Shown here piece after piece: positions 1 through 3,000 of a stretch of 22,651 bases of DNA. Numbering within the stretch: position 1 is the first letter of the stretch; each line of letters opens with the position of its first letter. The stretch is from a virus. Its lineage: Duplodnaviria; Heunggongvirae; Uroviricota; Caudoviricetes. A program made the position numbers. The stretch lies in the IMG/VR virus record IMGVR_UViG_2851938318_000003. One strand, given 5' to 3'.

Positions 1-3000
1 TTACTTCTTCGCCTCTGCAACCACTTTACTACCCACGCCGCGGTTATTGTATTCCCACATGCGGTTGTAGTTAGTGTCATTCAGATTGCGCTGTATTTCG
101 TCGTTATCATCTACGCTGCCGGTATTACCCGCAAACGGACGATTAGAGATCACCGCATCGGCCCACGGTTTAGCCGTGTTAAAACCTTCGTTGATGGCGC
201 TATCACGGATCACCACCTGACCGTTGGTATTGGCATCAACATCCAGCGAGCGGCCCAGTTGCGCCACACCATCACCGAAAGCATTGAAACGGCTGTTTAC
301 GGCGAGGAAACCGTAGTAAATGTTGGACAGCGTAGCCGGTGCAAACACATACGCTTCTTGCTGAGTACGTGAGTTCACCACGCGGAATTCGGTGTTATCG
401 AACACCACTGCGCCGCGACCAGAAACGATATCCACATCCCCTTCAATGTAGCTGTTGCTCACCAGCGTACGCGGCTGACGATTCGTTTCCAGACGGTTCT
501 GCACACCGCTGTTGGTGACAAAGAAGGTGTTCTGACGACCGAGAATGTTAACGTTGTTAATCTGTACCTGGTCACCATCAGTACGCAGTGCCACCGCCGG
601 ATGGTTACCTGCATCTACGCTATCGCCCAGCGTGTTTTCGATGGTCAGATTTTGCAGTTGCAGGCCATTGTTTTGTGACCAGAAGACCGCAGAGCAGAGA
701 ACACCGATACTGTCGCTGCGTTTGCTCTGGCAGCTATCGTACATATACCACGCTGGTTTACCTGGCATATATTTGCCGCGCGGGTTGACGTCGTGACGCC
801 AGTCGGCAGGGCTCATGCCACCATCAAGGGAAAGCCCAATCTTCACATCAATCGGTTTTTCACCTGTACCGTACAGAGTAATTCCACCCGGAGCGGCAGG
901 GACATATACCGTTCCCTGATACTCACCAGGCATCACGGCAATATACTGGCGCTTGTTGGTACGCTTGATAATTGCCGCATCTACCGCCGCCTGAATCGTG
1001 GTATGCGTTACACCTTGAGTGCCCGCCGGGCCGACAACAAAGTCAGGTTGCGCAGGCAGGGTAATCGGGGAAGGATTCCACGCTGCTGCACCTGGTGTCA
1101 GGGATGCAAAATAGTGTTGAGCATCGAAATTCTGCGCTTCTTTTGCCGACAGAATCGGGCGAGAAGAGGTACCAGGCGCGGTTTGATCAGAAGGACGTTG
1201 ATCGGGCGGGGTTGAGCTACAGGCGGTCAGCGTCACGCCAAAAGCCAATGCCAGCGCCAGACGGGAAACTGAAAATGTGTTCACAGGTTGCTCCGGGCTA
1301 TGAAATAGAAAAATGAATCCGTTGAAGCCTGCTTTTTTATACTAAGTTGGCATTATAAAAAAGCATTGCTTATCAATTTGTTGCAACGAACAGGTCACTA
1401 TCAGTCAAAATAAAATCATTATTTGATTTCAATTTTGTCCCACTCCCTGCCTCTGTCATCACGATACTGTGATGCCATGGTGTCCGACTTATGCCCGAGA
1501 AGATGTTGAGCAAACTTATCGCTTATCTGCTTCTCATAGAGTCTTGCAGACAAACTGCGCAACTCGTGAAAGGTCGGCGGATCCCCTTCGAAGGAAAGAC
1601 CTGATGCTTTTCGTGCGCGCATAAAATACCTTGATACTGTGCCGGATGAAAGCGGTTCACGATGAGTAGATGCAATTATGGTTTCTCCGCCAAGAATCTC
1701 TTTGCATTTATCAAGTGTTTCCTTCATTGATATCCCGAGAGCATCAACATGCAATGTTGTAGGGATGGCAATTTTTACGCCTGTTTTGCTTTGCTCGACA
1801 TAAAGATATCCATCTACGATATCAGACCACTTCATTTCGCATAAATCACCAACTCGCTGCCCGGTAACAACAGCCAGCTCCATTGCAAGTCTTAGCCAAC
1901 ATGGTGATGATTCTGCTGCTTGATAAATTTTCAGGTATTCGTCAGCCGTAAGTCTTGATCTCCTTACCTCTGATTTTGCTGCGCGAGTGGCAGCGACCGG
2001 GTTTGTTGTTATATGGCCTTCAGCTATTGCCTCTCGGAATGCATCGCTCAGTGTTGATCTGATTAACTTGGCTGACGCCGCCTTGCCCTCGTCTATGTAT
2101 CCACTGAGCATTGCCGCAATTTCTTTTGTGGTGATGTCTTCAAGTGGAGCATCAGGCAGCCCCCTCCTTATTGCTTTAATTTTGCTCATGTAATTTATGA
2201 GAGTCTTCTGCTTGATTCCTCTGCTGGCGAGGATTTTTTCGTAGCGATCAAGCCATGAATGTAACGTAACAGAATTATCACTGTTGATTCTCGCTGTCAG
2301 AGGCTTGTGTTTGTGTCCTGAAAATAACTCAATGTTGGCCTGTATTGCTTCAGTGATTGCTATCCTCCTGTCTCGGCCTAATCCAAACTCTTTACCCGTC
2401 CTTGGGTCCCTGTAGCAGTAATATCCATTGTTTCTTATATAAAGATTAGGGGGTAAATCCCGGCGCTCATGACTTCGCCTCGTCCAGCACCACATCCAGT
2501 TACCCTGCTCATTGTTGCCCCCACAAACAGACTTCACGCTCAATCTCGCGGCGAGTCATCAGCCCTTTCCATTGCTTACCGCCAGCGTATGTCCAGCGCC
2601 GTAGCTGATCACATGCGCCTTTGATATCGCCCTGGTTTATTTTGCGAAGAAGCGTCGATGTTCTGAAATTGCCAGCGCCCACGTTGTAAACGAACGAGTA
2701 AAGAGCGCCGCGCGTTGTTTCCGGTATATCGACGTTGATGTACGGGTTAATTTGTCTGGCGACCGTGGCAAGGTCTTTATTCAGGAGGGCTTTGCATTCT
2801 GCTTCGGTATACGTTTTACCGGGCATGATGTCTTTTCCGGTGTGTCCGTGACATACAGTCTGAACCGCCCCGGGTTTCCTGGAGAGTGTTTTATCTGTGA
2901 ACTCAGGCTGCCAGATCATCGTTTCCGATGGAAGCATAATAAGCTTTTTCTGCTTCTGCCGGAGGAGTATGGCCCAGCCTTCCCAGCAATCGTCGATTGT

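Follow-up and report, generated by a model that had tools for sequence, protein, structure and literature searches.

The lambda-type integrase gene of this prophage opens at what is very probably the scar of a rearrangement, now fixed in the att-lambda prophage of an Escherichia coli O111 clone, namely a deletion joint that was patched from a yfaQ template. The joint lies within 2440–2545 of the window, by which we mean the whole 22,651-nucleotide stretch analysed (IMG/VR record IMGVR_UViG_2851938318_000003). Read along the minus strand, the end of a lysozyme gene is followed by the start of Rz, a short patch and then a lambda-type int:

2509 to 2860, minus strand: R, an RrrD-type lysozyme gene, 3' part, with 100% identity to R of the O26 att-lambda prophage
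2499 to 2512, minus strand: Rz remnant, the first 14 nt of Rz, ATGAGCAGGGTAAC
2481 to 2498, minus strand: inserted patch of 18 nt, TGGATGTGGTGCTGGACG, an exact copy of yfaQ nt 518–535
2474 to 2480, minus strand: int-side microhomology of 7 nt, AGGCGAA, common to yfaQ nt 536–542 and int nt 10–16 in a three-way comparison
1419 to 2495, minus strand: chimeric int, encoding 358 aa that begin MWCWTRRSHERR; the same ORF is annotated by RefSeq

The lysozyme stop TGA at 2509–2511 overlaps the Rz start (2512–2499), which is identical to Rz nt 1–14 of both the Stx2 phage 1717 and the O26 sister prophage. The Rz/Rz1 spanin gene is incomplete, with these 14 nt left of an ORF that, when complete, spans about 145 aa with Rz1 embedded in it. 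The remnant opens a 25-codon chimeric ORF (2512–2435) running into the patch and int sequence, and it contributes an AGGG Shine-Dalgarno-like motif 7 nt 5' of the Int ATG. Its last two nucleotides (AC, 2500–2499) constitute the Rz-side microhomology with yfaQ. The new Int ATG (2495–2493) sits inside the yfaQ-derived patch, and a lambda/434-type int restarts at int nt 10, from 2480 downward, with 100% identity over 1181 nt to the O26 att-lambda int.

An initial annotation of this DNA had described a lysozyme TGA overlapping an Rz start that soon gives way to lambda int, and an Int beginning MWCWTRR rather than with the lambda MGRRR. The minus-strand reading agrees on both points, lambda Int beginning MGRRRSHERR. 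The junction was also rightly placed away from any IS end, and comparison of the breakpoints with the Rz and int parents bears out its illegitimate character. The alignment that the annotation had proposed for locating the breakpoint and any microhomology resolves the joint into Rz nt 14, the 18-nt patch and int nt 10, with 2-nt and 7-nt microhomologies. One element of the earlier description has to be corrected: int is not joined directly to Rz, as the 18-nt yfaQ-templated patch (2498–2481) lies between them and supplies the new ATG.

The patch occurs in neither parent (Rz or int). Its match to yfaQ is 18/18 for the insert alone and 27/27 with the microhomologies included, both in the K-12-like strain CIT and in RM9131 itself; by chance, an 18-mer would be expected at about 1.5e-4 occurrences per 5.2-Mb genome. 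In 5376 of 5426 genomes, yfaQ contains a 26-nt stretch of this sequence with 100% identity, and a 30-nt probe finds two places in the junction-bearing genomes, namely the junction and yfaQ. In RM9131, yfaQ lies 1.899 Mb from the junction, on the other replichore of the same genome, and is intact (1650 nt, single terminal stop). The patch was therefore copied and not moved, and the sequence match indicates that it was synthesised on a yfaQ template. A search for the 18-mer elsewhere in the window and in the loci of the parental phages gave only two partial matches of the length expected by chance, an 11-mer within Q (window 9074) and an antisense 9-mer within Rz, while an exact scan of IMG/VR returned only the same junction (2 contigs) and unrelated chance matches. 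An earlier reading of the patch as a mutated int start (ATG, a 7-nt insert and GGAcGA-GG) was dropped after the 27/27 match to yfaQ was found.

It is very improbable that the 18 nt were instead left behind by cut-and-paste, that is, by large inversions or translocations passing through yfaQ. Inversions of this kind are tolerated in EHEC, and att-lambda and yfaQ are placed nearly symmetrically about the ori-ter axis, at 1.614 and 1.726 Mb from oriC, respectively. Breakage in yfaQ, however, would have destroyed the gene and required its later repair by horizontal transfer, whereas yfaQ is whole in RM9131 and a second copy of the 26-mer is kept in every junction-bearing genome. The two distances from oriC differ by 112 kb (~7%), and a random locus would be equally close to sister-fork equidistance about 4% of the time; we regard this near-equality as suggestive only.

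The junction reads the same in each of 45 independent complete genomes, and an index of public assemblies lists the exact protein in 4242 blocks; the junction is therefore neither an artefact nor a product of chance. These 45 were found among 5426 complete E. coli genomes, all of the serotype-labelled ones are O111, and the Rz'-yfaQ patch-int junction is a specific marker for this O111 clone. The int 5' end also occurs in about 1930 further genomes, and among the 15 non-junction matches listed (of ~1930) the match begins exactly at int nt 10, over an annotated excisionase. The initial annotation had considered that MWCWTRR might be a natural Int variant with an intact upstream xis in related phages; the variant was found in only 45 of the 5426 complete genomes. 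An intact, RefSeq-annotated ORF with a Shine-Dalgarno-like motif is what a genuine phage integrase allele would display, but the restriction to O111 among labelled genomes, the excisionase at the corresponding position in the 15 listed matches and the origin of the extra codons in out-of-frame yfaQ sequence all speak against it. In IMG/VR, moreover, the 18-mer occurs in a lambdoid context solely as this same junction. We consider a natural allele effectively refuted, its probability being next to nil.

Both flanks of the junction are native to the att-lambda prophage. They show 0 mismatches, on either side, to the O26 ortholog, which has the normal gene order, and the first differences from the second lambdoid prophage, located at yfaT, lie 17 nt away from the joint on the R side and 36 nt away on the int side. 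These diagnostic SNPs rule out the yfaT prophage as the source of the flanks. They also weigh on the proposal that the joint arose from an ectopic interaction, through recombination or break-induced replication between the att-lambda and yfaT prophages, which we consider unlikely. The yfaT prophage shares Rz nt 1–16 and int nt 1–44 and encodes an Xis identical at 71 of 72 positions. The distance to the yfaQ 27-mer is 5.1 kb from the attR side of this prophage and 10.8 kb from its Rz, which lies upstream of the 27-mer and runs in the same direction; only about 1% of the genome is equally near. All listed O111 genomes, and O26 as well, have the boundary of this prophage, which is thus older than the event. 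Nevertheless, the nearest diagnostic SNPs are of att-lambda type, leaving no yfaT-prophage tract, a genome with an inversion between the two prophages was not found among extant ones, and the proximity could be coincidence.

The wider layout of the prophage, including its att sites and the IS-bounded block, is as follows:

1331 to 1345, plus strand: attL core GCTTTTTTATACTAA, an exact core match; the lambda P' arm follows as far as the int stop, in a flank identical to that of the O26 att-lambda prophage
2861 to 4169, minus strand: IS1203/IS629-like element, a frameshifted copy, which in this strain connects the P'-ren end of the block with the lysozyme 3' fragment
4170 to 13739, plus strand: block comprising a 35-nt P' remnant, ren, nin, lpxR, Q, esterase, holin and the lysozyme 5' fragment (13591–13739)
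22070 to 22084, plus strand: attR core, preceded by a lambda-like P arm (about 21925–22069)

The window contains three IS1203 copies. In the O111 strains 11128, 2013C-3250, 8B and 8E, the genes follow one another on the same strand in the order ren, Q, S, R, Rz' and int; in this strain the block at 4170–13739 has been flipped again, relative to most O111 genomes, through IS-IS recombination. The lysozyme gene is interrupted by a simple IS insertion, which duplicated 3 bp (GAC) and is absent from the junction-bearing strains 8B, 8E and 2013C-3250. It is thus a later insertion, unrelated to the junction. Other IS-linked deletions sealed by microhomology were observed in the same prophage, in 8E (4-nt overlap) and in 2013C-3250. 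The IS-free arrangement of 2013C-3250 had prompted a single-event DEL-INV-DEL model, which was rejected: the far joint of this strain does not have the CTT found next to the IS elsewhere, its patch shares a derived T-to-G change with the IS-bearing strain 7-15 45A, and 8B keeps the IS at the far joint, so that the IS-free state is secondary.

The conclusion of the initial annotation that this rearrangement was IS-independent cannot be sustained. The other boundary of the block is formed by an IS1203 copy located between CAT and CTT, hence without target duplication. The simplest history involves an IS-IS inversion and a deletion that swallowed one IS copy, and the IS-excision enhancer IEE, whose known products are microhomology-sealed deletions around IS629, is present in the strain.

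In the most likely history, an inversion through IS-IS homology would have been followed by a deletion. Two IS629/IS1203 copies in opposite orientation, located in the portal gene and at the 3' end of P, respectively, would have recombined and flipped the P'-ren...Q-S-R-Rz...portal-N segment, so that R and Rz came to point the same way as int. The joint would then have been produced by a deletion of about 15–18 kb, a size estimated from the O26 ortholog, removing the rest of Rz, the terminase genes, the N-part of the portal gene, one IS copy, P and O, together with the immunity and early-left genes, xis and int nt 1–9; an IS within the deleted DNA is needed only by this inferred IS-IS inversion model. 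At the break, a 3' end (...GGTAAC) would have been extended on single-stranded yfaQ DNA and then released, and its new AGGCGAA tail would have annealed to the int end, sealing the joint. Two candidate enzymologies can be proposed: the strain's IEE primase-polymerase/helicase, as the putative enzyme, may have worked on an IS-linked break after resection, or replication may have switched templates in the manner of MMBIR/FoSTeS. Genomes in an intermediate state did not turn up, and the order of events is therefore a parsimony argument.

An illegitimate inversion combined with an IS-mediated deletion would give an identical end state. More specifically, a primary illegitimate inversion could have joined int nt 9/10 with Rz nt 14/15, the reciprocal xis-int'/'Rz joint being lost later through an IS-mediated deletion from P to portal. 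The resulting arrangement equals that in 11128, and the far-boundary IS without target duplication would be expected after an IS-linked deletion. This route, however, requires two illegitimate joints and a deletion, and a chimeric query detected the reciprocal joint in 0 of the 5426 complete genomes. IS-IS inversion, in turn, is documented in this prophage, where it is visibly active in that the window and 11128 differ by it, and a homology inversion plus one deletion is more economical. We therefore view a primary illegitimate inversion as rather unlikely and retain the IS-IS inversion followed by deletion.

Codons 1–5 of Int (MWCWT) are the yfaQ-derived patch read out of frame, and lambda-type Int follows from RRSHERR on. 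The catalytic set R212, K235, H308, R311, H333 and Y342 (lambda numbering) is fully aligned and identical to that of PDB lambda Int chains, and the catalytic body is intact. The arm-binding N-terminal domain (residues 1–64) matches Pfam Arm-DNA-bind_1 and is identical from lambda R4 on, with G2-R3 replaced by W-C-W-T; the change had been assigned to this domain from the outset, and the joint indeed falls within its first codons. In lambda Int, the flexible basic N-terminal tail touches the minor groove and is reported to contact arm DNA (PMC2831311). The reported loss of xis and the PI promoter is confirmed as well, with Rz'/lysozyme sequence now 5' of int; the cognate xis, within which PI lies, is absent there, and its near-identical counterpart is found only in the yfaT prophage. 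Between the IS and int, the minus strand shows no sigma-70-like promoter and no terminator. Lacking a promoter of its own, Int could presumably be expressed only by read-through, which would come from the Q-dependent late operon via S and R in the ancestral arrangement and from the IS in the arrangement of this window.

The remnant keeps both att sites, but it is predicted to be unable to direct its own excision. It carries the effectors NleH, Cif, EspJ and LpxR, and the scar accounts, down to the base pair, for the fixation of a virulence-effector prophage in a major STEC clone. A single joint cost the prophage its xis, replication, immunity and packaging genes, and the att sites and an Int with an altered tail were retained.

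An intact IEE is encoded in RM9131 on a urease-linked island (786 aa, with AEP and SF2 helicase domains and residues D142/D144/K451/R735). IEE joins ends in vitro, for which at least 4 bp of homology are needed, and the IEE deletions that have been described adjoin the IS (PMC9943667). IEE-dependent deletions range in size between a few nucleotides and over 40 kb (Calvo 2023, PMC9943667, and Kusumoto 2011, cited there). A tentative and rather unlikely proposal is that the joint is a natural footprint of bacterial end joining driven by a polymerase, in a "copy, release, re-anneal" reaction similar to that of Pol theta and carried out by IEE on an IS629-linked break. In such a reaction yfaQ would have been chosen as a template in trans for being single-stranded and physically close, either at a sister replisome, since the two loci are copied nearly simultaneously on opposite replichores, or by pairing between the homologous yfaT and att-lambda prophages. 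The junction represents a rare and clean natural bacterial case of a deletion joint with a trans-templated insertion, in a lineage that bears IEE, a primase-polymerase dedicated to joining at microhomologies. It provides a concrete sequence signature for studies of what IEE does in vivo and of the distance over which a broken end can find a template.

Among known systems, this is a clone-specific decay scar of a known kind, and the trans-templated insertion is its unusual part. With the lambda/434-type Int-Xis module (represented by the O26 RM8426/11368 prophage) it shares the ybhC/ybhB insertion site, both att cores (attL and attR) together with their P and P' arms, the six catalytic residues, and an int body that equals the O26 allele at 100% identity and has about 97% DNA identity to lambda. 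It departs from this module in the deletion of xis, PI and int nt 1–9, in the change of the MGR tail to MWCWT, and in the position of int, which lies 3' of S-R instead of xis. Like lambda bio/gal transducing phages and grounded prophages, which come from illegitimate recombination at short homologies, it contains a junction made without site-specific or homologous recombination, and like grounded (defective) prophages it belongs to a prophage no longer able to excise or lyse (cf. PMC6379469). Unlike in these systems, no host flank was captured at the prophage edge, and the host DNA is a tiny copy of a distant locus.

The IEE/IS629 excisions of EHEC resemble the present case in having IS629/IS1203 in and around the prophage, an intact iee and a deletion size within the reported range. 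The 7-nt microhomology is also no shorter than the in vitro minimum, and sister strains show IS loss with overlaps of 1–4 nt. In contrast to those excisions, no IS end is located at the joint, one of the switches used 2 nt, below the 4 nt needed in vitro, and templated patches are not reported for IEE in the literature found.

In end joining, the template of an insertion usually lies near the break. The joint is similar to the products of TMEJ (Pol theta), MMBIR and FoSTeS in its microhomology at both switches (2 and 7 nt), in its exact genomic insert with the template left unchanged, and in that the longer microhomology was made by the copied tract itself. It differs from them in its bacterial host, which is without Pol theta, in a template that lies about 1.9 Mb away on the other replichore and not near the break, and in being one natural event, known from sequence.

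The window comprises the entire att-lambda prophage remnant of E. coli RM9131 (NZ_CP028429.1 848326-870976), a strain of the O111 lineage, and the remnant is flanked by ybhC (1-1284, minus strand) and ybhB. The interval from attL to int holds the P' arm, and a lambda-like P arm precedes attR. The main features are as follows:

1331-1345, attL, match to the lambda att core
2480 downward, minus strand, int body, AGGCGAAGTCATGAGCGCC...
2498-2481, minus strand, 18-nt patch, TGGATGTGGTGCTGGACG
2511-2509, minus strand, lysozyme stop TGA
2512-2499, minus strand, Rz start remnant, ATGAGCAGGGTAAC, overlapping the lysozyme TGA
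15049-22000, right-arm content: tail-fibre C-terminal stub, nleH, cif, a frameshifted DUF1076 (NleG-like) gene, a third IS1203 copy and espJ
22070-22084, attR, match to the lambda att core

Minus-strand reading and alignment confirmed the initial annotation of a lysozyme stop overlapping an Rz-like start and followed by lambda int. The lysozyme 3' part and 14 nt of Rz were 100% identical to R-Rz of both Stx2 phage 1717 and the O26 RM8426 att-lambda prophage, while the sequence from 2480 downward is a lambda/434-type int, beginning at int nt 10 and identical to the O26 att-lambda int and attL over 1181 nt. The two genes are not joined directly, as had been proposed, since 18 nt (2498-2481) intervene between Rz nt 14 and int nt 10. 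The N-terminus of Int is indeed rewritten: the RefSeq annotation (1419-2495, 358 aa) starts with MWCWTRRSHERR instead of the lambda MGRRRSHERR, and all subsequent residues align with lambda Int, including the six catalytic residues. The predicted loss of xis and the PI promoter also held, and the native int start is lost with them.

No source of the patch above chance level was found in the window, the parental phages or IMG/VR. An 11-mer in the Q gene, CTGGATGTGGT (9074-9084, plus strand), matches part of the Rz'/patch boundary, and the next bases are AACTGG, circularly permuting the junction sequence; the match was attributed to chance, the expectation being about 0.1 hits of this kind. When a 30-nt probe was searched against all E. 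coli genomes (BLAST, word size 11), bases 5-30 aligned at 100% identity with chromosomal yfaQ in 5376 genomes. In RM9131, the gene and the template are located as follows:

2,748,660-2,750,309 of NZ_CP028429.1, minus strand, yfaQ, 1.899 Mb from the joint
2749768-2749794 of NZ_CP028429.1 (~2,749,781), patch template in yfaQ

By alignment, the joint and yfaQ (nt 516-542) share 27 nt, ACTGGATGTGGTGCTGGACGAGGCGAA, of which the first 2 (AC) double as the Rz remnant's final 2 nt, the last 7 (AGGCGAA) coincide with int nt 10-16, and the middle 18 belong to yfaQ alone. An exact 18-mer match is expected by chance about 1.5 × 10⁻⁴ times per 5.2-Mb genome. Because yfaQ is intact in RM9131 (1650 nt, single terminal stop) and junction-bearing genomes keep two probe sites, the junction and yfaQ, the patch is a copy synthesised with yfaQ as template. 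In a reading frame other than that of yfaQ, it encodes the new ATG of Int and codons 2-5.

Of 5426 complete E. coli genomes, exactly 45 cover in full the 401-bp and 63-bp probes spanning the joint, and all of these that are labelled with a serotype are O111. The int 5' end is common to about 1930 further genomes; among the listed matches, the 15 non-junction rows begin exactly at int nt 10 and lie over an annotated excisionase. A natural Int variant with intact upstream xis, the alternative raised initially, is thus ruled out. An artefact is likewise ruled out by the recurrence of the joint in these 45 genomes and of the exact 358-aa Int in 4242 blocks of public assemblies, an abundance that marks the protein as that of a frequently sequenced clone. 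Three O111 genomes (2013C-3250, 7-15 45A and 7-58 72A) carry G instead of T at 2498, the first patch base; T being the yfaQ base, G is the later change and a derived marker of a subclade.

The joint destroyed Rz and Rz1, leaving a 25-codon chimeric ORF. The body of Int is intact and its basic tail, for which contacts with the arm-DNA minor groove are reported (PMC2831311), is altered. Rz supplies an AGGG motif 7 nt upstream of the new ATG. No sigma-70-like promoter or terminator was found on the minus strand from the IS to int, so expression of int would depend on read-through, with the Q-dependent late operon as its source in the ancestral and 8B (O111) arrangements and the IS as its source in the window. 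The remnant retains attL and attR, and the yfaT prophage elsewhere in the cell encodes a near-identical Xis that could act on it in trans. Separately, a 142-codon ORF (2509-2937, minus strand) starts at an ATG within the terminal 77 nt of the IS and runs in frame into the lysozyme 3' fragment; outward transcription of the IS end, if it occurs, could produce a lysozyme fragment with a replaced N-terminus.

In the normally ordered O26 sister prophage (RM8426), the order is attL, int (leftward), xis, early genes, O, P, ren, nin, Q, S, R, Rz (rightward), terminase, portal, tail, nleH, cif, espJ and attR. In O111 strain 11128 and most of the clone, a segment running from truncated P through the lysozyme gene R to the Rz remnant, P'(35 nt)-ren...Q-S-R-Rz'(14 nt), lies on the strand of int, and its far boundary is an IS1203 copy abutting an N-truncated portal gene. 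This far-boundary IS is flanked by CAT and CTT and therefore lacks a target duplication, which marks it as an IS that has been involved in recombination. The most parsimonious history runs through three steps. Two inverted IS copies would have been present, in portal and at the P 3' end; homologous IS-IS inversion would have turned R and Rz co-directional with int; and a single deletion from Rz nt 15 to int nt 9 (~15-18 kb, sized from the O26 ortholog) would have taken out P, O and xis together with the immunity and early-left genes and the second of the two IS copies. An alternative that starts with an illegitimate inversion and ends with an IS-mediated deletion is less likely, its reciprocal joint being found in 0 of 5426 genomes. 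IS-IS inversion, as in the three-step history, is demonstrably active in this prophage, since the block between the IS copies is re-inverted in the window relative to 11128, with loss of morphogenesis genes.

The IS within the lysozyme gene bears a 3-bp duplication (GAC), is missing from 8B, 8E and 2013C-3250, and is a later simple insertion. Neither IS copy is present in strain 2013C-3250. Its interpretation as the IS-free ancestral form is argued against by its far joint (GATCAT/GCGTTT), without the CTT that elsewhere flanks the IS, by the derived G shared with the IS-bearing 7-15 45A, and by 8B, where the IS is still at the far joint. At its locus (L023 2030-2120 and 11492-11989), precise restoration of the lysozyme gene is seen, and the IS is gone from the far joint along with 3 nt (CTT). 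Strain 8E (locus L028, 1-110) shows a further, larger deletion from gpJ to the same P' boundary, with a 4-nt overlap at the seal. These IS losses are consistent with ongoing excision of the IS-excision enhancer (IEE) type.

In the right arm, only cargo remains; all head and tail genes of 11128 are lost in RM9131, and the third IS1203 copy is 100% identical to the second. The lysozyme 5' fragment abuts a GGGTTTCC-type IS end in RM9131 (within 13728-13760) and, at the same nucleotide in 11128 (locus L001, 18500-18560), a GGAAATCC-type end. Simple homologous IS-IS exchange cannot yield this difference. Deletion between the identical 13-bp termini (TGAACCGCCCCGG) of two IS copies would, and would also explain the loss from portal to the N-part of the tail fibre. 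Elsewhere, in the region 7276-8450, lpxR (lipid A deacylase; opposite strand) adjoins a 72-nt antitermination-gene stub upstream of a second complete Q gene; this arrangement, also present in O26, looks like a moron insertion replacing an earlier Q allele.

Regarding the choice of yfaQ, a second lambdoid prophage lies in yfaT, 5.1 kb from the template (NZ_CP028429.1 2750000-2778000, locus L020). It is degraded and carries nleA and nleG. Its Rz is co-directional with the template, 10.8 kb upstream, and it shares Rz nt 1-16, int nt 1-44 and 71 of 72 Xis residues with the att-lambda prophage. This prophage is older than the O111/O26 split; the diagnostic SNPs nearest the joint are of the att-lambda type, not the yfaT-prophage type. 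In RM9131 (oriC ~4,475,650; junction 850,815), the joint lies 1.614 Mb clockwise and yfaQ 1.726 Mb counter-clockwise of oriC, a near mirror symmetry, so that forks on opposite replichores reach the two loci almost simultaneously; a locus picked at random would be this symmetric in about 4% of cases. Neither coincidence is decisive.

The joint shows two template switches, at microhomologies of 2 and 7 nt, and its donor is intact; together these are the hallmark of either synthesis-dependent microhomology joining or template switching during replication. Single-stranded yfaQ DNA was the template on which a 3' end (...GGTAAC) primed and gained at least 25 nt; once released, its new AGGCGAA terminus annealed to the int side. 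IEE, an error-prone polymerase, joins 3' overhangs that share 4 bp of homology or more, is carried by O111:H8, and mediates IS629 excision with deletions of a few nt to >40 kb (PMC9943667). RM9131 encodes an intact 786-aa protein with an archaeo-eukaryotic primase (AEP) domain at the N terminus and an SF2 helicase domain at the C terminus, with D142, D144, K451 and R735 at the positions described for IEE. Its RefSeq name goes no further than 'TOTE conflict system AEP domain' protein. The gene is located as follows:

1186047-1188407 of NZ_CP028429.1 (L026 26048-28408, the IEE island), iee, in an integrase-bounded island adjoining urease genes

Resection of a break at the IS copy within the deleted interval, followed by sealing by IEE, fits the data, with the enzyme inferred; the caveats are that the 2-nt switch is below its in vitro 4-bp threshold, that no IS is left at the joint, and that templated patches are not described in the IEE literature examined. 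An IEE-independent MMBIR/FoSTeS-type switch is equally compatible. In E. coli, short additions (2-21 bp) have been observed at roughly 1% of the junctions formed by alternative end joining (PMC11297215).

The joint is a real, clone-specific scar of prophage decay, of a general kind already known. Its single uncommon feature is an 18-nt patch templated in trans by a distant host gene, which also gives Int a new start.
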